Counted from the first letter of the stretch, positions 41,720 to 54,108 are shown. The stretch: DNA of 64,000 nt from Bacilli bacterium (GCA_041652475.1 JBAZHG010000002.1:22591-86590); one strand, 5' to 3'. Notes: a model not told the origin generated them from the sequence alone. Made by a program: numbers and translations.

Positions 41720-42982
41720 TTACTCAAGGCCGATTAACCAGCGATAGGCAATTGGAAAATATTCTGCCCACGCACTTTCATTGTGATTTTTATTCGAATC
41801 GATCAAGGTGGCGATTTTTTCTCCGTCATAGCCACGCTCGATCAAGCCGTTTTTGATGATGTCGACATAGGGGGTGATGGTCGTTTCCAAGCCCCCGGCA
41901 TATACATATAGGCGCGGCCAGTCCAACGATTGAGAAAAATCCATCCCGTCAAGGAAAGTGTCCAAAGCCTCGGTTTGATAAACGTACATAGCCGGTGAGA
42001 AGATTAAAGCGTAACCAAACACGTCGGGATAAGTCATCGCCATATATAACGAGATGATGCCGCCCATCGAAGAGCCGCCAATTCCGGTTTGATCCCGCCC
42101 GGGATCCGTATTGAAATGGGAATCGATATATGGTTTTACCGTCGTGACGATGAACTCGGCGTATTCTTCCCCCGAAGTGTCATTGAACATGTTTTCATAA
42201 GCCGAAGAGCCAATCGGCCAGGAGGGCGAGAGTTCGTTAAGGCGGTCAGCGCTGTTGTCGATGCCGACCACGATGGCGCCCTCATAACCTTCATCCATCA
42301 TCGCTCCGATGGCTTCGTCGATTTTCCATTCGCCCGCAAACGACGTATAGCGATCAAAGAGGTTTTGCCCATCATGCATGAAGAGGACTGGGTATTTTTT
42401 TACAGTGTCCTCGGGGTCGTATCCATCAGGCAGCCAAATGCGAAGGCGACGCGTGCGCCCATCCGCATATGGGGTCATGTCCAAGGTGACGAATTGCAGC
42501 GTCCCCCGGGTTAACGAAGTCATGCCGGTGTGGTTTTTAAAAGTTTGGATATCGTCGTTCACGGTTTGCGCCCCCTGTTTGATTTGGTAACGGCGATTGG
42601 ATGTTTCTCCGCCGACGCTCGTTCCTTCGACATAGGTCCATGGGTCTTCGATCTGTCCGTCGAGGAGCAATACGTATTTATATTCAATCGTCTCGCCGAT
42701 CATCGTTTCGTCAAATGTCAGATTGGTCGCATATTGGTAGTCGGATTGTTTAGTAAGGGTATATCCATCGGCTTCCGGGTCCCACCCATTGAAGCTCCCG
42801 GCGATTTGGAGTCGGTCATTGATTCCGATTTTTCTCGGGATCGACACCAAGAAGTCGATCTTCGTTGGCTCGAGCCCGCTTGATGGCGCGAATCCGCATC
42901 CCGAGCAAGCGACAAGGACAACCGCGGCGAAAATCCGCCATACGTATCGCGATTTGTTTGGTTGAAGGCGGCGCCGTTCCAT
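41720..42982 (-). CDS. Lipoprotein esterase (alpha/beta hydrolase, 'putative esterase'/CE1-like) with N-terminal CBM48-like module
   Basis: ATG 42982 gives 'MERRRLQPNKSRYVWRIFAAVVLVACSGC'. 'LQIAGSFNGWDPE...IEYKYVLL' is the CBM48-like part. 'YPVLFMHDGQNLFD' and the nucleophile elbow 'GGSSMGG' follow. Confidence 0.75.
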   Translation of the reverse strand: MERRRLQPNKSRYVWRIFAAVVLVACSGCGFAPSSGLEPTKIDFLVSIPRKIGINDRLQIAGSFNGWDPEADGYTLTKQSDYQYATNLTFDETMIGETIEYKYVLLLDGQIEDPWTYVEGTSVGGETSNRRYQIKQGAQTVNDDIQTFKNHTGMTSLTRGTLQFVTLDMTPYADGRTRRLRIWLPDGYDPEDTVKKYPVLFMHDGQNLFDRYTSFAGEWKIDEAIGAMMDEGYEGAIVVGIDNSADRLNELSPSWPIGSSAYENMFNDTSGEEYAEFIVTTVKPYIDSHFNTDPGRDQTGIGGSSMGGIISLYMAMTYPDVFGYALIFSPAMYVYQTEALDTFLDGMDFSQSLDWPRLYVYAGGLETTITPYVDIIKNGLIERGYDGEKIATLIDSNKNHNESAWAEYFPIAYRWLIGLE

Positions 42983-43026
42983 GATTCTTGTTCCAAAAAG
43001 AATGATAGCACAGGTCAATCACGACG

Positions 43027-43074: not shown

Positions 43075-44220
43075 TCATTTTGTCGCCAGTTTGTGTAAGT
43101 ATTCGCCGGCGATGACGAATTTCTGAGGCATGATCTTGTCTTCCATTTGGAACATGTACAGTTCGTTATCGGCGTAGATCTGGACGTTTTTGCCGATGTC
43201 GGAAGGAAGATATTCGATTGTTTTGGTACTGAACGACAAGACGACTTGTTTGCCTTGATCTTCGCCTTCATAGCGGTATCGCTCGCGGTCGAGCGACAAG
43301 ACGCCGGTCCCAACCGGAGCCAAAACCGAGCCTTGGTAGCGGATCAAGGTGACCGGGACGCTTAAGGCGAAACCCGGGTCGGCGTCGATTTTGGCGACGA
43401 GGTCAGCCCGCTGCTTTTCGAAGAGTTCATAAACGCTTTCGCCGTTTAAGAACCCATACTCGTCGTAAGTGAGGACATGGCCGCACTTCAGACATACGAG
43501 GGTGTTTTTGTTGACGGACAACCCTTCATGAAGGCATTTCGGACAGCGATAGACCAAGGTTTCAAGATTGTCGATGGCTTGAATCTGATATTTGTGGCGC
43601 TGGACGCGGTTGAATTCCCCGGTGTTGAAAGAGAGCTTTTCGTTGATGGCCTGATAAATCGACGCTTCGTCGAGGGACTTGAGTTCCTCGGCTTGGAAGA
43701 GAGGAAAGACGCGCGTGAAGACCTTGCCCTTAAAGACTTTGTCGCTCCAGGGCGGGGACATCAGGTAGTCGTTTTGGATTTGGGCGACATAGACGTTGAC
43801 GCCGGCCTTCTTGATGAATTTGGCAATCGAATACGGCGGTCTTAGACTCGTCCCGTGATAGGAAATCTGCCCTTCCGGGAAAATGCTCAATATGCCTTTT
43901 TGCTTCAAAATCGACAAGGCGTCGATAACCGATCGGGTGTCGCTTTGAAACGACGATTTCGGGATGGCGCGGGCCATGCGTAAAAACGGGCCTCGCTCCG
44001 GTTCGTTGAACATCTTGGCGGCCGCCATGTAAGTGATCCGATGGGGATAAAGGGCCGCCGTCGTGAAGATGTAATCGCGGAACGAGGTGTGATTCGTCAG
44101 GATGATGGCCGGGCGCTTGATTCTGGTTTTTTGAACGACGCGCCCGCCTTGAAGATAAGCCGATATTTTCAAAATGCCGGCCAAAGGGAGCCACAAGAAA
44201 GGATTGGGTCGTTTAATCAT
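43075..44220 (-). CDS. PlsC/LPLAT-family acyltransferase with internal zinc-ribbon and C-terminal extension
   Basis: ATG 44220 is chosen because the upstream gene stops at 44243. The H(X)4D box is 'ILTNHTSFRDY', followed by 'IFPEGQISYHG' and the CxxC...CxxC ribbon 'CPKCLHEGLSVNKNTLVCLKCGH'. Confidence 0.75.
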   Translation of the reverse strand: MIKRPNPFLWLPLAGILKISAYLQGGRVVQKTRIKRPAIILTNHTSFRDYIFTTAALYPHRITYMAAAKMFNEPERGPFLRMARAIPKSSFQSDTRSVIDALSILKQKGILSIFPEGQISYHGTSLRPPYSIAKFIKKAGVNVYVAQIQNDYLMSPPWSDKVFKGKVFTRVFPLFQAEELKSLDEASIYQAINEKLSFNTGEFNRVQRHKYQIQAIDNLETLVYRCPKCLHEGLSVNKNTLVCLKCGHVLTYDEYGFLNGESVYELFEKQRADLVAKIDADPGFALSVPVTLIRYQGSVLAPVGTGVLSLDRERYRYEGEDQGKQVVLSFSTKTIEYLPSDIGKNVQIYADNELYMFQMEDKIMPQKFVIAGEYLHKLATK

Positions 44221-44242
44221 TAAAGTCCTTTTTAAATCCAAC

Positions 44243-46297
44243 TCAAGCGGCGGAATCAAGCATTCCGAAAACCAAGCCCATGTAGCCATCGCCGCCCATG
44301 TTGTAATAAAGATTCAAATAGTCACCCGTAAAGTAGTTGGCATTGCTTGTTGCGTAATACGGTGCCGGCAACTGTGTCAACGGATTAATGACTTCCATGC
44401 CTGAATATCCAGTATAAATACCCATCACGCCATTGGTATCTTGCAAGCGCGGAGCCGCTTTGTCGAAACTTGCGACCGCAGTCATGAATTGGCCTGAGAA
44501 ATCAAGGGCGACGCCGTCGTCAATTTGAAAAGTGCCGTTGATCTTGGTCGAAGAGGGAGCCGACGCGGCGCCGTCTTTGATTAAGCCTACCATATTGAAT
44601 TGAGTGACCGGCTCGCCACCGATGTCATACGTCTTTGTGATGGAATTCGTGCCGAATAGGCGCAAATCGTCGCCTAGGTCTTTGATTGGTCCGATTGCGG
44701 CCGTTGCGGACACGAGCCGGAACCAGTTCTCGCCACCATGAACGAGCGATTCGAGGACTGAATTCTCAACTCTGGTGTGCGGGATATTCCCTTCGGTGCC
44801 GTCGGGACCCGGATTGACGTGATCGGAAATGATGATCGGGCCGCCGGCGCCAATGAATTCGGAATCCTTGATGAGGAAGTCAGGCGAACCCCAGTTATAC
44901 AGCATGCTCGAGAAGGAGTCGTAGCCACGGCATTTTTCGAGTATGACCGTGGGAGCGCTGATCTCGGAGAGGTAAATCGTGAAGCATTGAGTGGCAATCG
45001 CGTTGTAGACCCAGGCATCGACGCTCACCATTTTCATGAAGATGGCGCCGCCGGATTTCTCCGGGTCCTCGGTTCGGTTGGCGTTGCCAACGATGAGAAG
45101 GTTCTTCAAGGTGTAGTCGCCCAGATCTTCGCCGGTTTGTACTGCGCCGGCTTTGATTAAGGTGGAGTGGGAAATGACGAGTCCCGGTTCGGCGTCGACC
45201 CGTCCCGATTCGCGGACGACGACCGGCAAGGTCGAATAGTCGAGGCTGAAGTAGTTGCCGTTGATGGTGAACTCCTCTTCGGGCAGGATGTCGCGATGGT
45301 AAAGGTCGACGTTGTCGCGCAAGGAGCCGTAGACGCGGTCGACGTCCGAATCAGTTGGCAAGACATCGGCATCTCCCGCCATGTAGAAAAAGCTGTCGGG
45401 GAGGTTTTCACGGACAATCTCGATGTCATTTTGGAAAACCAATCCGTTGATGTTTGAAGTTGTCAAACCCTTTTCGGTCCGATAAGCGTCCCAATGGGTT
45501 CCGACGTTGTTGAAAATCGCCAAATCATCTTGTTCGTAAACGTTATGTCCATCGACCACGTTGAATTCGAACGAGGTCATGAACTTGGCTTCGACCGCGT
45601 ATTGGTCGCCGTAAGGACGGACCGAGAGACGGAAGGTGTGCCCGACGGCTGCTTCGGTGAAGTCATAGGTCGACGCGAATTCGTCGATGGCCACCATCTC
45701 GTCGAGAGCACTCCCGGTCAAGGTGACCCATTCGGTCTCGTTTTCCATCTGAACGGTGGACACGCTATGGTAAGAGGTGACTTCGATTTCTTCGTCATCG
45801 CTGTTATAAGCGTAAATGTTCGGGAAGAATTTGAAGGCGTTGTCGTCGCCGACGGCATAGCCTTGCTCACGATCCATGAACTCGCTTCGCTTGTTGCCTT
45901 CGCTCTTCTCGGTGATGTTTTCAAAGTAGGTGGTGACGAAATCGGGAGCCGAGATGTTGTCGATTTCGAAGTATTCGACGACCGTGTAGGTCCAGACGAC
46001 GCTTTCGGTCAAGTAGGTGATTGTCAATTCGAATTCACCGACGGTCGAGGTGTCGAGGGTTTCCGGGGCAAAGGTCAATTCCGATCCTTCGATTGTCTCT
46101 TCGTCGTTTTCGAACGTGGCGGTGACGGTGATCTCGTCGAGGTCGACGACCGCGTTTTGTTCATACTCTTCTTCCAAGCCGGAAACGACTTCGATTGACA
46201 GCAAATCGCCGGGGTCGAACGAGGAGCCTTCGCTTGATGAATTGCATCCGACGAGGGCCAGCGCCAATAATGGGATTATCGCCAAGTATTTTTTCAT
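44243..46297 (-). CDS. 684-aa surface lipoprotein, Ig-like N-terminal domain + probable beta-helix; function unknown
   Basis: Lipobox 'ALVGC' followed by 'NSSSEGSS'. The Ig-like segment is 'ITVTATFENDEETIEGSELTFAPETLDTSTVGEFELTITY'. The later part is Gly/Asn-rich with a beta-strand periodicity. Confidence 0.65.
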   Translation of the reverse strand: MKKYLAIIPLLALALVGCNSSSEGSSFDPGDLLSIEVVSGLEEEYEQNAVVDLDEITVTATFENDEETIEGSELTFAPETLDTSTVGEFELTITYLTESVVWTYTVVEYFEIDNISAPDFVTTYFENITEKSEGNKRSEFMDREQGYAVGDDNAFKFFPNIYAYNSDDEEIEVTSYHSVSTVQMENETEWVTLTGSALDEMVAIDEFASTYDFTEAAVGHTFRLSVRPYGDQYAVEAKFMTSFEFNVVDGHNVYEQDDLAIFNNVGTHWDAYRTEKGLTTSNINGLVFQNDIEIVRENLPDSFFYMAGDADVLPTDSDVDRVYGSLRDNVDLYHRDILPEEEFTINGNYFSLDYSTLPVVVRESGRVDAEPGLVISHSTLIKAGAVQTGEDLGDYTLKNLLIVGNANRTEDPEKSGGAIFMKMVSVDAWVYNAIATQCFTIYLSEISAPTVILEKCRGYDSFSSMLYNWGSPDFLIKDSEFIGAGGPIIISDHVNPGPDGTEGNIPHTRVENSVLESLVHGGENWFRLVSATAAIGPIKDLGDDLRLFGTNSITKTYDIGGEPVTQFNMVGLIKDGAASAPSSTKINGTFQIDDGVALDFSGQFMTAVASFDKAAPRLQDTNGVMGIYTGYSGMEVINPLTQLPAPYYATSNANYFTGDYLNLYYNMGGDGYMGLVFGMLDSAA

Positions 46298-46393
46298 GGT
46301 GCTCTTTCCTTTTATTTTAATATGCTAAAAAGATTATACTCCACTTGCCTTGGTTCGGCTATATTGACCTCACTGGGACCAAATCCCGGAAAA

Positions 46394-46846
46394 TCATATT
46401 TTGGCGCGGATCCGCAGGCGTGACGAGCGGTTGGAGTTGTCGGTCGCCCGCAGGGTGAAAGTCTCGGTCCCTTCCGACAGGAAGCTGATGCGGCCGGTCT
46501 GCCCGTCGACTTGGGCTACCGAACTGTGAGGATCGGTATAGAAACTGATCGTCTGCCGGGTGGCGTCGAAAGGCCACACCTCGTAGATGATGTCGAGGGC
46601 GAGCCCGTCGTGATAACGGAGCGTCAGCGGCGTCCCGGGCTTGTTTTCGTCATACAGCCGGTACAAATCGTCTTCCTCGTCGAAATAGGTCGGGAAATAT
46701 TCGTCGCCGATGCGGAGGCTCGTGATTACGATGTCGTTGACGTAGATCGTTTCGTTATAGATTTCGGCGCGTTGGAAAAGGAGCCCAATCAAGATGACGG
46801 CTAGAAGCGAAATGGTGGAAATGATCAAAATGACGGATTTTTTCAT
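46394..46846 (-). CDS. Small N-terminally anchored protein with Big_2-like Ig domain
   Basis: ATG 46846 lies 1 nt after the upstream stop. The TM helix is 'VILIISTISLLAVILIGLLF'. 'VAQVDGQTGRISFLSEGTETFTLRATD' resembles a Big_2 C-terminal strand pair. Confidence 0.6.
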   Translation of the reverse strand: MKKSVILIISTISLLAVILIGLLFQRAEIYNETIYVNDIVITSLRIGDEYFPTYFDEEDDLYRLYDENKPGTPLTLRYHDGLALDIIYEVWPFDATRQTISFYTDPHSSVAQVDGQTGRISFLSEGTETFTLRATDNSNRSSRLRIRAKI

Positions 46847-46847
46847 G

Positions 46848-48524
46848 TTAGCGCACCGGATCGTAATAATACGCTTTGACTTTGTTGACGAACATGTAGA
46901 CACCCGTGCCGAAGAAAAGCGCCCCGATGATCAAGACCTTGGCAAATGCCGGATTGTAGGACGCTTCCGGCATCACCTGTTCCTCAATCATGAAGCCAAA
47001 GGTGACCATAGCCACCAGGAACGAGACTATGAAGGCGATGACGGTGGCCTTCGTTTCGTTTGGGTTGTTAATTTGATCTCCGGTCGTCGCGTATTGCTCG
47101 TTCTGGGGGTTCATGATGTCGAGCAAGGCCGAAAAAAGGATGTGCCCTACTTGGATGAAGCCCAGGCCCAAGCCCAGGAAGAGGATGTTGGTCAGTTCGT
47201 AATGCATGTGCGCGTCGAAGATGTAGACGGAGACTCCCAGCGAAATCAAGGACAAGACGATATTCGGCAAAATCTTCGCCAATAAGGGAAAGACGATTTT
47301 GATCGGTTTGGTCCGTTTCATGTAACCGACGCGGCCTTCTCTAGAATAAACCGTGGCCAGAATGCTGTTCGAAGCTAAAAGCGGCAAAAGGATGATAAAT
47401 ACGTTAAAAGCCTGCACGATGAATTCGCCGTTGGGGTAGAGATCCATCGAATCGAAAATCTGGTTCAACAACAAAACGATCAAGGGGATGGAAATATACG
47501 TCGCCATAAAATTATAAGCAAACGCGCCCGAGCGCGCGGCGAGGCGGATTTCCTTCACGATGAACGACACGAAAGGCGGCCACGGCCGGTTTTTCGGTTT
47601 TTGGATGCGGATGTTCTTCTCGTATTCGAAACTGCGGCTTGTCATTTTTATGAAATAGAAACGCGAGAGGAAATAGGTCATGAAGAACAGGGCCGCCAAT
47701 ACGGCAATCAATGACAAAAACACCAAGACTGGTTCTTGATGCCAGTAGGTGTAGTGCATTGAAGCGTCGTATTTTCCGATGACCATCACCACGACGTAAT
47801 AAACCGGCAAAAACCACGTTTGAAAGAAGGTGGTGAGGTTGGTCAGCATGTTCTTGATCGGCCCCCAGTAGTTGATAACGTTAATCTCATCGGGAATGAT
47901 TAAAATCAAGCGCACGATCAAGTACACGAACGCGGCCACGAGTAGGGTCGAGAACAAATTCTTGAAAAAGGGCGCCCGGGCAAACAAGCGGTTGATCAAC
48001 AAAACAGGTAACGACAGTACGACCCCAAGGACGACCGGAATCAAAGACACGAACAAGAAGGCGACGAACACCCATAGATAAAACACCCACGAGACCGGGG
48101 ACATGATGCCGTAAGCAATGAAAATCGGTAGCGTAAACGTCACGTTTTTGTAAATTTCATAAATATAGAAAATAATGATTTTCGAGAGGAATATGCGATT
48201 GGCGGATACCGGAAAGGTCACCAATATCTGGTTGTCTTGAGCTAAGTAAAGCGACTGGACAAGCCCGTTCGTGCAGGTGAAGGTCGAAATGACCAGCATA
48301 ATCGAAAGAATCATCGTCATGACCGAAGTCGGCAGATACGGAGAGTTGTGAAAGATTTTTAAAAACGACGCTAAGAAGAATAACCCCAGGGCCACCAAGG
48401 TGACGATGATGAAGCGGAGAACGAAAAAGACGATTCTCCGAATCAGGTTCGCCCGTTCGCGCAAGAAGCCGAAATCGAGCTTGTCGGTCAACTGCATCAT
48501 GACTAAAGTCTTGACGTCGTTCAT
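46848..48524 (-). CDS. Large polytopic ABC-exporter-type permease (about 12 or more TM helices)
   Basis: 558 aa, almost entirely hydrophobic helices. It lies 6 nt downstream of the ABC ATPase fusion gene. I recognise no specific family motif. Confidence 0.65.
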   Translation of the reverse strand: MNDVKTLVMMQLTDKLDFGFLRERANLIRRIVFFVLRFIIVTLVALGLFFLASFLKIFHNSPYLPTSVMTMILSIMLVISTFTCTNGLVQSLYLAQDNQILVTFPVSANRIFLSKIIIFYIYEIYKNVTFTLPIFIAYGIMSPVSWVFYLWVFVAFLFVSLIPVVLGVVLSLPVLLINRLFARAPFFKNLFSTLLVAAFVYLIVRLILIIPDEINVINYWGPIKNMLTNLTTFFQTWFLPVYYVVVMVIGKYDASMHYTYWHQEPVLVFLSLIAVLAALFFMTYFLSRFYFIKMTSRSFEYEKNIRIQKPKNRPWPPFVSFIVKEIRLAARSGAFAYNFMATYISIPLIVLLLNQIFDSMDLYPNGEFIVQAFNVFIILLPLLASNSILATVYSREGRVGYMKRTKPIKIVFPLLAKILPNIVLSLISLGVSVYIFDAHMHYELTNILFLGLGLGFIQVGHILFSALLDIMNPQNEQYATTGDQINNPNETKATVIAFIVSFLVAMVTFGFMIEEQVMPEASYNPAFAKVLIIGALFFGTGVYMFVNKVKAYYYDPVR

Positions 48525-48530
48525 GGATAT

Positions 48531-50753
48531 TTATCCTGCTGTTTGCGGATTCAGGTCGGCCTTTTCTTCTTCGATGACGGCCATCTTCAGATAATAGGCT
48601 TCCAAGGTTCCTTGTTTGTGGACTTCTTCGATTGAAATCGGATCGAACAAATGACCTTTCTTGATGACGACAATGCGGCCGCAGATGTTCTCGACCACGT
48701 CGATGATGTGGCTTGAAAACATGACGATGTTGCCCTTGGCGGCGTGTTGCCGCATGCATTCCTTGACTTGGTAGATGCTGTCGGGATCAAGCCCGGTCAA
48801 AGGTTCGTCCAAGAGCCATAGCTTCGGGTCATGGACCAAGGCGGCGATGATGGTGACTTTTTGCTTGGTTCCGTGCGAATAGGTTTTGATTTGGCTGTCG
48901 AAAACGTCTTCAAGGTGGAAGAGCTTAATATAGTGGGCGATCCGCTCGTTGCGATCGGTCTGGTTGACGCCGTAGATGTCGGCGATGTAGTTGACGTATT
49001 CGCGGGCGCTCAGTTTTTCATACAAAGCGTAGTGGTCGGGGACGTAACCGATCAAGCGTTTGGCTTCGACCGGCTGCTTTTCGACGTCATAGCCGCAGAT
49101 GGAAATCGATCCCTCGGTGATCGTTTGGATGCCGACGATTGATTTGATGGTGGTCGATTTCCCGGCCCCGTTGGGTCCGAGAAAACCAAAAATTTCCCCG
49201 CCGTGGACCACAAGCGAGGCGTCTTTTACTGCAAAGTTCTTATTGCGCCCGTATCGTTTCGAGAAATGTCTGAGTTCGAGCCGGATGCCGACATTAGGTT
49301 CCATGGGTTCTTGTAACCCCCTTCCATTCAAGGCGGCCATTAGGGCCAACCGATTCATCTGGATAGCTTGCTTCCGATGTTTCAAATCCCCGAGCGAATC
49401 GGCCACGTTGAAACCCAGGGTATAGACAAACCACATCGCGAAGGACACGCCGATGTAGACGAATAGAAACATCGTCTGGTAGAGCGGGTGGAATTCGAAG
49501 TCCAGCTCACCGATCGAGAAACTGACCGACAAGTTGAAAATGCGTTCGGCCCAAATGCCGAGCTTATCGACGATGAAGTCGCTGTTGATGAAGAAGAAAT
49601 CGACCGTCGCGTAATTGGAAAACCACACGTTGATGAATAGCACCGACACGAAATAGACCGTGAAGGTCACAAGCGAATAGTACATCTGCTTCATCTGGGG
49701 ACGAGGGAACAGTTTCAGCGCCACCAAAAGCAGCGGCATGAAAAAGGCCATCGAATGGTTGTACCAGAAATGGACGATCAGGTGATTGGTCAGGTTGGTC
49801 GTCTCGGCGTAATTGGGCATCAACATCGCCATCAAGGCCCCAAAGACGTTGATGAAATAAGTGAAATAGAATAGGCGCTTGGCGTTGAAAATCAAGCAAA
49901 TGGGAATCAAGAACATCGCCGTGTTGCAAAGGTGGATCGGCCAAGTCCATGGCGTCAAGAAGTCGGCGTAGGAGTACATACGACAGAAGGTGATCATCGT
50001 GGCGACGCTTAAAAACACCATCGAAAAGCGGATGATTTCCTGATTTTTGTTTCTTAAGGCGAAATACAAGGAAAAAGGGATGATGACCGTCGCATAGATG
50101 AACAGGCGATGGGTTAGACTGATGTCAATGACCTCATAGCGGATGTTGGCGTTCCCGAAGATGATCTGCGGGGCGTAGATCGGCATCGCGGCCAGCAAGA
50201 CCGGGACGATGACGATCAAGAGGTTGATGACTTCATCCTTGGCAATCTTGATTTTAGGGTCGGCTTTCCAAACGAGAAACAGCCCATAAGCCACGAGACC
50301 GGCTTCCAACGCCGTCATGATTGAAGGGATGATGAGCGCCCAACCGACCATCCCGGTCAGTTGCATCGCCGTCGAGTGATAGGAGAACCCGAGATAAATG
50401 GCAAAGGCCGGCGTGAAGACGAACTTCAAAAGGTTGGCGATTGTCTTGACCTTGAAGAACGGGTAGCACATCAGCAAAATCGCCGCGGCCAACTCGAACC
50501 AAATGCCGAGGGTCGCCATCAGGTTGACGGTCGGAGCAAAGGGACCATTTCCCAATCCAATCACATTCAAGGATTGGTCAGAATATGAAAAATACCGAAT
50601 GGCGAAAATCACCATCAGGACAACGGCATAAACTTTGTACTTGGGCACGGTCTTACCCCGGTCGATCGATCGGGAAGTAAGGATGGCTCCGAGACCGGCC
50701 AATAGAAGGGCGATTCCGGCGGAGACTAAGTATATCAATTGTGACCTCTTCAA
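48531..50753 (-). CDS. Fusion protein: polytopic membrane domain containing a TMEM164/YwaF (TIGR02206)-like core + C-terminal ABC ATPase
   Basis: TTG start at 50753. The N-terminal ~490 aa are polytopic. 'TWPIHLCNTAMFLIPICLIF...NVFGALMAMLMPN...HFWYNHSMAFFMPLLLVALKLFPRP' matches my recollection of the YwaF/TMEM164 pattern (P-x-H-L-C ... G-A ... P ... H). The C-terminal ABC domain has 'GPNGAGKST', 'YSHGTKQKVTIIAAL' and 'LWLLDEPLTGLD'. Confidence 0.7.
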   Translation of the reverse strand: MKRSQLIYLVSAGIALLLAGLGAILTSRSIDRGKTVPKYKVYAVVLMVIFAIRYFSYSDQSLNVIGLGNGPFAPTVNLMATLGIWFELAAAILLMCYPFFKVKTIANLLKFVFTPAFAIYLGFSYHSTAMQLTGMVGWALIIPSIMTALEAGLVAYGLFLVWKADPKIKIAKDEVINLLIVIVPVLLAAMPIYAPQIIFGNANIRYEVIDISLTHRLFIYATVIIPFSLYFALRNKNQEIIRFSMVFLSVATMITFCRMYSYADFLTPWTWPIHLCNTAMFLIPICLIFNAKRLFYFTYFINVFGALMAMLMPNYAETTNLTNHLIVHFWYNHSMAFFMPLLLVALKLFPRPQMKQMYYSLVTFTVYFVSVLFINVWFSNYATVDFFFINSDFIVDKLGIWAERIFNLSVSFSIGELDFEFHPLYQTMFLFVYIGVSFAMWFVYTLGFNVADSLGDLKHRKQAIQMNRLALMAALNGRGLQEPMEPNVGIRLELRHFSKRYGRNKNFAVKDASLVVHGGEIFGFLGPNGAGKSTTIKSIVGIQTITEGSISICGYDVEKQPVEAKRLIGYVPDHYALYEKLSAREYVNYIADIYGVNQTDRNERIAHYIKLFHLEDVFDSQIKTYSHGTKQKVTIIAALVHDPKLWLLDEPLTGLDPDSIYQVKECMRQHAAKGNIVMFSSHIIDVVENICGRIVVIKKGHLFDPISIEEVHKQGTLEAYYLKMAVIEEEKADLNPQTAG

Positions 50754-50902: not shown

Positions 50903-51721
50903 TTAGCTCGGCTGCATCGCCCCGAAGAGCACCAGCCAGGCGAGGATCGACTTGGCCACGAGCGACAAAATGATGTAAACGCGCTCGCCGTAAAGGTAAT
51001 TTTTCCATTTGCCGACTTGTAGATACTGCAGGATCATATTGATCGGGAAGGTGTTGAAAGCCACGAAGTAGGTGGCCACGATCGCCCAGACAAACCACGG
51101 GACTTGATCGTAGTTGCCGGTTCCCGTCATGTAGATGATGATGACGGCCCACGGCGCCAATCCGGCGATGGTGCCCCAAACGAAAGGACCCCAACGGAGC
51201 TGGGACCTTTCCTTATTGACATTCAGTTGCTCCATCACCAAGCCGAACAAGTTCATGGAGGCGTTGACGATGAAAATCAAAATCAAGGAAGCGATGTCTT
51301 TGACGCCAAACAAGGTGGCAATCAAGACGATCATGATCGAGCTTGAGAAGGCGTACTCGAACCACCGGAATTTGTTGATGCCTTGTTTTAAATCGCGTTC
51401 ATAAATGGCAAAAGTCGGATTGGGAACCGAAATGAGCGCATGGGCCAACGCGGAAAGCAACAAGAACGAGGCGACGAGGATGCCAAAGGGCAGATTAAAC
51501 AAGAATTTTGAATCGACGACAAGGGCTTCGGCAATCGGATCGTAGGTAATGAAGAACTGGACAATCTCGGGTTGGAACTCGGCGATCGTTTGGATCACGG
51601 TTCCGGCTAGGAAGATCATGATGATGCCTTGCAATAGATGGATGGCCCCCATGATCACGTTGAAGCGGCGCAGACGATCTATCTCGGTCGCACCTTTAAA
51701 GAATTGAGAATATTTTCCCAT
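50903..51721 (-). CDS. Heliorhodopsin (7-TM retinal-binding protein, inverted topology family)
   Basis: ATG 51721 is preceded by GGGAGAG. The 272-aa protein has seven hydrophobic helices. 'NKFRWFEYAFSSSIMIVLIA' (counterion Glu122), 'VNASMNLFG', 'KWKNYLYGERVYIILSLVAKSILAW' (Schiff-base Lys257, AAG at 50951-50953), 'MGAIHLLQ' (His28) and 'LSALAHALI' (His94) closely parallel the heliorhodopsin 48C12 sequence as I remember it. Confidence 0.85.
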   Translation of the reverse strand: MGKYSQFFKGATEIDRLRRFNVIMGAIHLLQGIIMIFLAGTVIQTIAEFQPEIVQFFITYDPIAEALVVDSKFLFNLPFGILVASFLLLSALAHALISVPNPTFAIYERDLKQGINKFRWFEYAFSSSIMIVLIATLFGVKDIASLILIFIVNASMNLFGLVMEQLNVNKERSQLRWGPFVWGTIAGLAPWAVIIIYMTGTGNYDQVPWFVWAIVATYFVAFNTFPINMILQYLQVGKWKNYLYGERVYIILSLVAKSILAWLVLFGAMQPS

Positions 51722-51939
51722 ATAAACTCTCTCCCTTATTTTCATAATATATGAAATTATTGAAAAGTGGTACATTGTCCGATATTTCGAATGGGAAAAC
51801 GATTATAATCCGTTTGATAACCTCTCAATGTCGTCGGAGTCATGAATCGAAACGCATATTTTGCTATTGGAACGTCGGCTCTATTATGTATAATAGAACG
51901 AGCGCCCTTTGTTCGGCACTTAAGGATCCGATACCCGCC

Positions 51940-54108
51940 ATGCACCAAACCCTACGCAAATCACTTCTCGGACTCGTCTTGTTATCAACCGTTTTCGCTA
52001 GCGGAGCTTCCGTCTCATTCTTCCATGAAAAACATGCTGAACCACTCACCGTCGAAGCCGCCGTCGGCACCTATTACGACGGCATCAACGATTCATTGAC
52101 CGAAACATCATTATTGAGCGCCCTGCGTAGTTTAAACTCGACCAAACGCACACGTACGGTCGGTTATGACAATATGGATGATTATTATGAGGAAACCGAC
52201 GGGGATCCAAGTAATCAAAATAATCTAATTGCCTTCTACTCTGGCACTTCGGCATATTTCAACGGCAGTTTCAGCAGCGGAAACTTCAACCGCGAGCACG
52301 TCTGGCCCAATTCCCGGGGCGGCAGCGTGGTTGAAGGTGACATCCACATGACGCGCCCGACCTTGGTGGCTGAAAATAGCAGCCGCGGCAACTCCTTTTA
52401 CGTTGAAGGAATGACCAGTTCCACCAGCGGATGGGATCCCGGAGCCGAATCATGGGGTCTCGACAAATACCGAGGCATCGCTGCCCGGATCGTCTTCTAT
52501 GCGGTGGTCGCCAGTTCTACTTTATCACTGGTGGACACCACTAATGACGCTACATCAAACAAAACCATGGGCAAACTCTCGACCTTGCTCGATTGGAACC
52601 TTCGCTATGGCATCGACGCGACTGAAAATCAACGAAACGAGGCGGCCCAAGGAATCCAAGGCAACCGCAATCCCTTCATCGACCACCCCGAGTACGCCTG
52701 CAAGATTTGGGGTTCCTACAATGCGAACACCCAAAGCGTCTGTTCGGCCTCGCAAATTAGCCCGACTTCGATCAGTTTGACCCCGTCGTCGGCCTCGATA
52801 TCCAAAGGTGGGACCCGGCAGTTGTCCGTCAACGTCACCCCGAGCAACGCCGACGCCTCGGTTACTTGGTCGTCTTCGAACACCAACGTGGCCACCGTCT
52901 CTAACGGACTCGTAACCGCCGTAGCCGAAGGTTCGGCCACCATCACGGCCACCTCGACCGTGGATACAGCCATCAAAGGTACCTGCGCCGTCACGGTAAC
53001 CCCGCAAGTCGCCCCAACGTCTTTGACGATGAATAAATCCACGGCGACTATTTCCGTCGGCAATACCACGACTTTGGGCGTGACCGCCTCTCCGGCGGGA
53101 GCCAACAATTCGGTCATCTGGTCGTCTTCGAATACCGGCGTGGCCTTGGTCAACAATGGGGTCGTCTCGGGCATCAGCGAAGGCTCGGCCACGATAACCG
53201 CCACTTCGACCGTTGCCCCATCGGTGTCAGCCACGTCCACCATTACCGTCAATCAAGTCAGCGAAGAAACCACTACTTATACCTTTACCAGCAATAATTG
53301 GAATGCCACCAGCGGCGGGAGTTCCGCCAATTGGTATTCGGGCATGGCTGGCAATTTATTTTTGAACAACGGCGTCCAAGTGTCGACCGGGGTTTCCGGG
53401 GCCTATGCCAACAGCCCGACAACCTTCAGCGATCTGCAGTCGGTTACCATCACCTATTGCACCAACAGCAGCTCTGGCGCCGGCACGATCAATCTCTTTG
53501 CGGTGACGACGGCGACCGCGGCCGCCCAAAGCGGCACCCGAATCGGGACCTCGCAAAGCGTGACCACGTCCGGCGGAACCGCTTCCCGCACCTTGACGTA
53601 CACGCCTTCGGGCATCGGCAACGACGTTTATATCCAAATATACGTGGCGACGACCACCAATTCGATTTACATCCAGCAAGCCACGATCGTGTCCGGAGCC
53701 GAATCGAGCGCCGATCCTCAGGAAGAAGCCACCACCTGGGCGAGCGCTTTCCTGACGCAGACCAATAACGGATGCTCGCTTCAAAGCTACAATATACTTT
53801 CCAACGCCTGGACCGGGGTTTCGAGTAGCTACTCCAGCATGAGCGAAGCCGCCCAAATGATCGTCGAATTGGCCGCGCCTAACGCCGAGGGCACCACGGT
53901 CGAGCACGCCAAAGCCCGCTACTTGATCATCATCGACAAGTACCCGCTCGACGATTTCATCCTCAACTCAGGAAGCAGTTCTTCCCCGGCGATGGTTTAC
54001 GTCCCGGTGGCGACGAGCGCTTTCCTGATATTCGCCTTCTCGGCCTTCGCGTTGAGCTCGCTCGCGGCTTTGATTTGTCTCCAATGCCGTAAACGAAAGG
54101 CCGATTAG
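51940..54108 (+). CDS. Surface-anchored Endonuclease I-family nuclease with two Big_2 domains, a beta-rich domain, a Cys/Trp helical module and a C-terminal TM anchor
   Basis: Start ATG 51940 gives a signal-like 'MHQTLRKSLLGLVLLSTVFASGASV'; ATG 51886 is also possible. The Endonuclease_1 motifs are 'FNREHVWPNSRGG' and 'GNRNPFIDHPEYA'. Two Big_2 repeats are present ('TRQLSVNVTPSNADASVTWSSSNTNVATVSNGLVTAVAEGSATITATS' and its paralog). The terminal helix is 'AFLIFAFSAFALSSLAALICL', followed by 'QCRKRKAD'. Confidence 0.8.
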   Translation: MHQTLRKSLLGLVLLSTVFASGASVSFFHEKHAEPLTVEAAVGTYYDGINDSLTETSLLSALRSLNSTKRTRTVGYDNMDDYYEETDGDPSNQNNLIAFYSGTSAYFNGSFSSGNFNREHVWPNSRGGSVVEGDIHMTRPTLVAENSSRGNSFYVEGMTSSTSGWDPGAESWGLDKYRGIAARIVFYAVVASSTLSLVDTTNDATSNKTMGKLSTLLDWNLRYGIDATENQRNEAAQGIQGNRNPFIDHPEYACKIWGSYNANTQSVCSASQISPTSISLTPSSASISKGGTRQLSVNVTPSNADASVTWSSSNTNVATVSNGLVTAVAEGSATITATSTVDTAIKGTCAVTVTPQVAPTSLTMNKSTATISVGNTTTLGVTASPAGANNSVIWSSSNTGVALVNNGVVSGISEGSATITATSTVAPSVSATSTITVNQVSEETTTYTFTSNNWNATSGGSSANWYSGMAGNLFLNNGVQVSTGVSGAYANSPTTFSDLQSVTITYCTNSSSGAGTINLFAVTTATAAAQSGTRIGTSQSVTTSGGTASRTLTYTPSGIGNDVYIQIYVATTTNSIYIQQATIVSGAESSADPQEEATTWASAFLTQTNNGCSLQSYNILSNAWTGVSSSYSSMSEAAQMIVELAAPNAEGTTVEHAKARYLIIIDKYPLDDFILNSGSSSSPAMVYVPVATSAFLIFAFSAFALSSLAALICLQCRKRKAD

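Follow-up and report, generated by a model that had tools for sequence, protein, structure and literature searches.

We analysed a stretch of 64,000 nucleotides (nt) from a Bacilli bacterium (GCA_041652475.1 JBAZHG010000002.1:22591-86590), referred to below as the window, and describe an envelope gene cassette located within positions 43,075 to 50,753. The first gene encodes a TMEM164/YwaF-type membrane domain fused to an ATP-binding cassette (ABC) ATPase, and the next three encode a permease, a small anchored protein with an immunoglobulin (Ig)-like domain, and a lipoprotein. These four genes form a self-contained cassette that recurs in many uncultured Bacilli and Clostridia, and that is an undescribed combination of known parts. 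By analogy with TMEM164, we tentatively propose that the cassette may encode a machine for ATP-coupled acyl transfer whose substrate is a lipid or lipoprotein of the envelope, a reading to which we give a probability of about 45%. An initial annotation of the window had not recognised the fusion as a described architecture. This holds for the literature, as no paper describing either the fusion or the cassette was returned by a full-text search, and does not hold for the databases, where the fusion is common.

The list of open reading frames (ORFs) contains five tightly packed genes, all on the minus strand, where the initial annotation had placed them, and the intergenic gaps (6, 1, 96 and 22 nt from the fusion to the PlsC-like gene) and the terminator were recovered as well:

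50753..48531, minus strand: gene 1, fusion, 740 amino acids (aa)
48524..46848, minus strand: gene 2, permease, 558 aa
46846..46394, minus strand: gene 3, small anchored Ig-like protein, 150 aa
46297..44243, minus strand: gene 4, lipoprotein, 684 aa, lipobox LVGC with Cys18
44220..43075, minus strand: gene 5, PlsC-like, 381 aa

The fusion protein is divided into three parts. Its start codon is uncertain, with database relatives starting 5-17 codons further in.

50118..50753, minus strand: residues 1-212, extension of five to six membrane helices of no recognisable family (no Pfam or NCBIfam match)
49419..50117, minus strand: residues 213-445, TMEM164/YwaF core (PF14808) with invariant H215, R216, C276, N277 and H333
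48573..49283, minus strand: residues 491-727, ABC ATPase domain (PF00005) with intact motifs

The membrane core matches the Pfam family TMEM164 (PF14808) over residues 219-402, with 65.4 bits against a cut-off of 25 (E=7e-18), and the unfused relatives of the fusion match the same family. The core thus belongs to the TMEM164/YwaF family, as had been suggested, and is not an ordinary ABC-2 permease. The initial annotation had also proposed a search with TIGR02206 (‘TMEM164-related integral membrane acyltransferase’). Here the fusion reaches 50.6 bits, under the NCBIfam cut-off of 75, so that the Pfam part of the proposed search was positive for TMEM164 and ABC_tran and the TIGR02206 part was negative; judged by this score, the fusion is a relative of the TIGR02206 subfamily as NCBI defines it, and not a member. 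The ATPase domain matches ABC_tran (PF00005; residues 510-652, 92 bits, E=6e-26), and its best NCBIfam matches are GldA and DrrA, which are of the ABC-2 type, both under their equivalog cut-offs. Walker A (GPNGAGKS, 526), signature (YSHGTKQ, 625), Walker B (LWLLDE, 645) and H-loop (SSH, 680) motifs are all intact, and they are invariant in an alignment of the fused proteins. The fusion of the core to an intact ABC-2-type ATPase is thereby confirmed. TMEM164, ABC_tran and AAA_21 are the only Pfam families reported for the protein. The N-terminal extension is conserved in both the fused proteins and the unfused relatives of ~475 aa. We considered whether it is a degenerate copy of the core that mimics a TMEM164 dimer, and rejected this at the sequence level (hhalign probability 0.1-0.2%).

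An AlphaFold2 model of the fusion (predicted local distance difference test score, pLDDT, 82.6) contains 13 membrane helices, a long connecting helix and a standard ATPase domain. The last six membrane helices (residues 238-445) fit the six-helix core described for the ATGY superfamily. C276 lies on helix 275-289 and H333 on helix 324-345, which are the second and fourth of these six, and both residues are invariant in 20 fused proteins and in a stand-alone paralogue. This paralogue is encoded by a second YwaF/TMEM164-like gene in the same genome (C21:12642-13304; locus L002, ORF 1435-2241); the protein of 268 aa carries YFCN and SH motifs and is 18% identical to the fused core.

The arrangement is shared with human TMEM164, in which C123 and H181 are located on transmembrane helices 2 and 4 of a six-helix core, and which moves an acyl chain from a phospholipid to a lysophospholipid independently of coenzyme A (CoA) (Reed et al., bioRxiv 10.1101/2022.07.06.498872). 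An acyl-Cys123 intermediate of TMEM164 has been seen by cryo-EM (PMC12830759). The fusion scores above the gathering threshold of the same Pfam family and places a cysteine nucleophile and an invariant histidine on the corresponding helices, and by this analogy CoA-independent transfer via an acyl-cysteine would be its expected chemistry. In contrast to TMEM164, the core of the fusion has five to six additional helices before it and an ABC ATPase after it, its motif is HLCN instead of NPCH, and its gene belongs to an operon of fixed composition, together with the genes for a permease and two surface proteins. The stand-alone YwaF proteins (TIGR02206, ~220-270 aa) have the same catalytic core and motif; they have neither the N-terminal extension nor the ATPase, and their genes are without the partners found in the operon.

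To predict which way the putative active site faces, we placed the C-terminal ATPase domain in the cytoplasm, counted helices and applied the positive-inside rule. Across 20 sequences, loops 32-38, 100-102, 165-171, 234-237, 290-291 and 346-353 are short and rich in lysine and arginine, and the remaining loops are longer and acidic. Because it is the odd-numbered loops that are short and K/R-rich, with the ATPase domain in the cytoplasm, the active site is predicted to face outward: C276 would sit at the outer end of helix 275-289, the helix carrying H333 would enter from the outside, and the pair would be located in the outer half of the membrane.

The three genes that follow encode a permease, an anchored Ig-like protein and a beta-helix lipoprotein, in agreement with the initial annotation. 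The permease matches PF16949 (ABC_tran_2; 39.5 bits against a cut-off of 25.7) and has no ABC2_membrane match even at E<=10. Alignment-averaged hydropathy reveals 12 hydrophobic segments, arranged 6+6 around a central loop rich in lysine and arginine (residues 293-336). An internal duplication was examined as the origin of this arrangement and rejected: the two halves align in register, but not significantly (probability 0.1%). With 12 helices in a 6+6 arrangement, one permease would be expected to take two ATPases, and therefore two copies of the fusion.

The small protein has a single hydrophobic segment (residues 1-28), which forms an N-terminal membrane anchor, and one Big_2-type Ig-like domain. 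The lipoprotein has two Ig-like domains, including a Pfam match to Big_3, followed by a C-terminal beta-helix-like domain of no known family, and Cys18 of its lipobox is invariant among family members. In the AlphaFold2 model of the lipoprotein (pLDDT 90.1), repeating triplets of short strands are found at approximately residues 419-516. No Pfam family covers this region in 31 cassette lipoproteins. Foldseek and profile searches of the PDB matched only the Ig-like domains; in BFVD, pectin-lyase-fold and tailspike proteins were matched (E~1e-5), and the TM-scores were low.

The fusion is widespread but patchy, and within the YwaF family it belongs to an extended branch of rather modest size. 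When 1.84 billion cluster representatives were searched exhaustively with phmmer, only 230 clusters were recovered at E<=0.001, a mix of fused (~700-830 aa) and unfused (~450-500 aa) forms. In a collection of 5.8 billion proteins, the TMEM164+ABC_tran architecture is found in more than 120 clusters, at identities of 48-88%. Some members at NCBI are already named ‘YwaF family protein’ or ‘ATP-binding cassette domain-containing protein’. In a sample drawn from the class to which the window belongs, 49 of 401 genomes have the fused form. A scan of one genome per prokaryote species returned 561 related stretches, and the locus counts given here refer to the best 80 of these, all of which are full-length fusions. 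Their hosts are metagenome-assembled genomes (MAGs) labelled Bacilli, Erysipelotrichales, Christensenellaceae, Clostridia and similar.

We compared the window proteins with the 80 loci by tblastn and clustered all flanking ORFs. Exactly four families recur around the fusion position, always co-directional and in constant order:

fusion: 80/80 loci
permease of 545-575 aa: 76/80 loci
small protein of ~135-190 aa: 64/80 loci
lipoprotein of ~630-890 aa with invariant lipobox Cys: 59/80 loci

The shortfalls in the partner counts are due to cut contigs, and the fifth most frequent neighbour family occurs at only 9 of the 80 loci. Two genomes of the class (G275 and G268) contain a split variant, in which five separate adjacent genes encode, in the same order, a TMEM164-type membrane protein of ~480-493 aa, an ABC ATPase that is 54% identical to the fused ATPase, a PF16949-type permease, an anchored Big_2 protein and a large Big_2 protein. 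The profile of the small cassette protein aligns through its anchor and first Ig-like domain with the Big_2 proteins of the split variant (hhalign 96% and 92%); between the large protein and the lipoprotein there is only a weak local resemblance (probability 6%). As the order of the genes is the same, the split variant independently supports a joint function of the membrane enzyme and the transporter. For four further unfused relatives of ~475 aa, the neighbouring genes are unrelated (MatE, CitMHS, kinase, subtilase, V-ATPase and GH18) and uninformative.

Two further observations concern the loci themselves. Some genomes (G218, G129, G310 and G067) have two fused copies of gene 1, pointing to duplication within the genome. 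In relatives with 63-72% identity, the cassette lies between rnhB and a convergent rluD-lspA-ileS cluster. In three of them (L083, L093 and L094), lspA, the gene for lipoprotein signal peptidase, is within ~1 kb of the cassette end; this proximity is seen at only 4-5 of the 80 loci and is probably due to chance.

We hypothesize that the 12-helix permease binds two copies of the gene 1 product through their ATPase domains, so that each transporter would be flanked by two TMEM164/YwaF-type Cys-His acyl-enzyme domains, whose active sites would be located within the outward-facing half of the bilayer. The two surface proteins, one anchored and Ig-like and the other the Ig/beta-helix lipoprotein, would sit outside. 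ATP hydrolysis may then move or present a membrane lipid, which could be either the acyl donor or a lipid-anchored acceptor. Cys276 would accept the acyl group as a thioester and pass it to an acceptor at the outer face; the candidates are a lipid, glycolipid or lipoprotein kept in place by the two surface proteins. In its most specific form, the proposal is an as-yet-undescribed machine for outer-face acylation, in which an ABC-2 transporter flips or presents the donor or acceptor to outward-facing Cys-His domains fused to its own ATPases, and these domains acylate a surface molecule that the lipoprotein and the Ig-like adaptor keep in place. We regard this detailed version as doubtful, and rather less probable than the general proposal. 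The acylated surface molecule would possibly be the N-terminus of the cassette’s own lipoprotein.

Several observations weigh against an acyl-transfer machine. It is the Pfam model that carries the likeness to human TMEM164: phmmer and profile hmmsearch of PDB sequences found no match to the solved TMEM164, and in a Foldseek search with the whole fusion model the top 50 PDB matches are ATPase domains only, the best being isolated ABC ATPase domains (4rvc, LptB) and the ATPase domains of ABCA1/4/7. Because the PDB offers no sequence or structure match beyond the ATPase, the correspondence of the Cys/His pair with that of TMEM164 is one of position and invariance, and not of superposition. The outward orientation, too, depends on the positive-inside rule and on helix counting. 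The ATGY superfamily includes hydrolases (AIG1/ADTRP), and the domain could hydrolyse an acyl ester rather than transfer the acyl group. Moreover, the cassette is dispensable, because it is missing from two genomes of the same genus (96-98% complete) and from most of the family. As to transcripts, the locus is present in DNA metagenome runs only (groundwater, landfill and lagoon).

The closest bacterial parallel to the proposed acylation is LhaT of Bacillus subtilis (YpjA, DUF1405), a protein of the ATGY superfamily that transfers acetyl groups from a lipid carrier to the N-termini of lipoproteins on the extracellular side of the membrane (PMC12345273). LhaT is a bacterial member of what the literature places as the same superfamily; it acts extracellularly with a lipid-borne donor made in the cytoplasm, and its acceptor is a lipoprotein, as is one of the proteins that the cassette always encodes. 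LhaT differs in belonging to another Pfam family (no DUF1405 match is reported by Pfam for the fusion), in having six helices only and in lacking a fusion or link to an ABC transporter, and its donor pathway (PcrB, YvoF) is not encoded in the cassette. The route by which the donor of LhaT crosses the membrane is still open (PMC12345273).

How acylation outside the cytoplasm is powered and supplied is an open problem on which the cassette touches, and the flipping of the LhaT donor is a case in point (PMC12345273). A YwaF-type domain on an ABC motor, with the same three partners, leads to a testable prediction, namely that acyl transfer is coupled to ATP-driven movement of lipid at the surface. 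If the detailed version of the proposal is true, the cassette would provide the first function for bacterial YwaF-type proteins, together with a donor-delivery step of the type still to be found for LhaT. The proposal would concern hundreds of uncultured Firmicutes species from gut, digester, groundwater and landfill, and in the case of the present host a lineage that apparently has no wall and depends on surface lipoproteins.

Among other ABC systems, TarGH, Wzm/Wzt, ABCA/ABCG and LptB2FG resemble the cassette in the subfamily of the ATPase; they are not known to carry an enzyme domain on the ATPase polypeptide, and their permeases are of another family. The composition of the cassette as a whole parallels that of NosDFY(L), which matures nitrous oxide reductase and in which an ABC-2-type ATPase, a permease, an extracytoplasmic beta-helix protein and a lipoprotein work as one machine. 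The parallel of NosF, NosY, NosD and NosL suggests a different explanation, in which the cassette would be an ABC system that transmits force, like NosDFY or FtsEX. Nothing would be transported; ATP would instead drive a conformational change in the beta-helix lipoprotein and the Ig-like adaptor, through which, for instance, an enzyme or adhesin outside the cell could be turned on and off, and the TMEM164 domain would edit or sense lipid as an accessory. The pectin-lyase-fold and tailspike matches in BFVD are in favour of a beta-helix, and conservation of the two surface proteins is no less strict than that of the transporter, in agreement with such a role. However, no match to a NosD family was reported in the 31 cassette lipoproteins at E<=0.01, and no NosD structure is among the top 50 PDB matches found by Foldseek, a ranking dominated by Ig-like domains. 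The permease, with its 12 helices, PF16949 assignment and lack of an ABC2_membrane match, also differs from that of NosDFY(L), which is not known to have an acyltransferase domain, and the cassette is without a copper or NosZ context. Since force transmission moreover leaves unexplained the covalent link between the ATPase and a Cys-His enzyme domain whose catalytic residues are invariant, we consider it unlikely.

The lifestyle of the host suggests another function, the scavenging of lipids. The host genome (1.07 Mb, 78% complete) encodes Lgt, and no penicillin-binding protein (PBP) transpeptidase was found in it, nor in 55 of 61 genomes of the family; the lineage appears to be without a cell wall. 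As the transpeptidase was not found in the genome or in most of the family, the cassette would act at a bare membrane in this host. The genome likewise has no PF00109 ketoacyl synthase at this level of completeness, and the lineage probably obtains its fatty acids from outside. Nevertheless, four genes for PF01553 acyltransferases are present in ~1.1 Mb, including the one directly behind the cassette. In a cell without a wall and without fatty acid synthesis, the lipoprotein could capture foreign lipid, the ABC transporter could take it into the membrane, and the TMEM164 domain could move acyl chains to the cell’s own lysolipids without CoA, a transfer for which human TMEM164 provides a precedent (bioRxiv 10.1101/2022.07.06.498872). 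With the genome 78% complete, these absences are provisional. Genomes of the same genus and most of those of the same family, which share the lifestyle, are missing the cassette, and it is common in MAGs that their depositors labelled Christensenellaceae and Clostridia. In addition, ABC-2/DrrA-type systems are known as exporters, and a beta-helix is not a typical lipid-binding fold. We therefore view scavenging as still less probable than force transmission.

Self-protection or drug efflux by an ABC-2 transporter of the DrrAB or lantibiotic-immunity type, with an accessory membrane domain, is suggested by the NCBIfam matches of the ATPase, the best of which include DrrA and a lantibiotic-protection ATPase family; these matches are far under the family cut-offs, no biosynthetic or regulatory genes are conserved nearby, and neither the two strictly conserved surface proteins nor the invariant Cys-His pair would have a role, which makes this explanation highly improbable.

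The initial annotation had viewed all five genes as a system for lipid or lipoprotein remodelling and export, in which two acyltransferases, the TMEM164 domain and the PlsC-like gene product, cooperate, and had linked this system to the neighbouring heliorhodopsin gene, with light-linked control as a possibility. Gene 5 does encode an acyltransferase of the lysophospholipid acyltransferase (LPLAT) type with a zinc ribbon, as had been stated: it matches PF01553 with 45.1 bits against a cut-off of 23 (E=1e-11), and NHTSFRD (HX4D), FPEG and CxxC...CxxC motifs can be read in the translation. It starts 22 nt downstream of gene 4, where a ribosome-binding site of its own (AAAGGA) precedes the ATG by 8 nt; there is no terminator in the gap, and it is probably co-transcribed with the cassette here. 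However, the gene is found beside the cassette at none of the 80 loci, 59 of which reach beyond the lipoprotein gene, and an orthologue (57% identity) is kept in a genome of the same genus that is without the cassette (G091). It belongs to a family of PlsC/zinc-ribbon proteins of ~400-450 aa with three paralogues in this genome. Gene 5 is a lineage-specific passenger and not a member of the cassette.

The heliorhodopsin gene is likewise an unrelated neighbour. The order of heliorhodopsin and cassette is kept in two relatives only, which are 88% (L003) and 86% (L092) identical. In the class sample, heliorhodopsin is present in 11 of 49 genomes with the fusion (22%) and in 73 of 351 without it (21%), which is co-occurrence at background level. 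In the ten other genomes that have both, the genes are 15-280 kb apart or on different contigs, and never adjacent. The cassette-free genome of the same genus has an 84% identical heliorhodopsin in an entirely different neighbourhood, without synteny. A survey of this kind had been proposed with the initial annotation, which would have given up the link to heliorhodopsin if the fusion proved common and unlinked in other genomes, and this is what we find. The link is incidental, and so are both features that make the window look special, the second acyltransferase and the heliorhodopsin; neither should guide the interpretation of the cassette. The comparative data thus largely refute the five-gene, heliorhodopsin-linked system, which we rate lowest of all the explanations, and what is retained of the remodelling and export system is the TMEM164-ABC fusion, the permease and the two surface proteins.

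The transcription signals around the cassette are as follows. The extended -10-like sequence upstream of gene 1 and the heliorhodopsin terminator, both reported in the initial annotation, were located, and the hairpin of the latter separates heliorhodopsin from the cassette.

51775..50903, minus strand: heliorhodopsin gene (PF18761, E=5e-95), a neighbour and not a cassette component
50888-50859, minus strand: hairpin and T-run after the heliorhodopsin stop codon, read directly as AAAAAGCCAATGG-TTCG-CCATTGGCTTTTT
50837-50809, minus strand: alternative promoter TTGACC-17-GAAAAT, a consensus match only
50797-50789, minus strand: extended -10-like TGATAGAAT, 36 nt upstream of the TTG start of gene 1, a consensus match only
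43067-43036, minus strand: intrinsic terminator ending the transcription unit, found by a scan (12-bp stem and T-run) and also read directly

Recent acquisition of the cassette was considered and rejected, as its G+C content (0.49-0.53) resembles that of the rest of the window.

On the far side of heliorhodopsin, a divergent gene (51751-54108, plus strand) encodes a protein of 785 aa that combines an Endonuclease I domain with two Big_2 domains and has a hydrophobic anchor at its C-terminus. The pairing of Endonuclease I with heliorhodopsin is kept in the 86% identical relative, and Endonuclease I genes are also located near the cassette in the relatives with 63-72% identity. Directly past the cassette terminator (41720-43018, minus strand) lies a gene for a putative esterase of 432 aa (PF00756) with an N-terminal lipoprotein-like signal. 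Further on, the G+C content between 34000 and 42000 is lower (0.40-0.45, against 0.50-0.57 elsewhere in the window). This stretch, which contains genes for a Big_2 surface protein of 1215 aa, a metallophosphoesterase of 672 aa, a Big_2/CBM_20 protein of 417 aa and a GntR-type regulator, may have been acquired separately.

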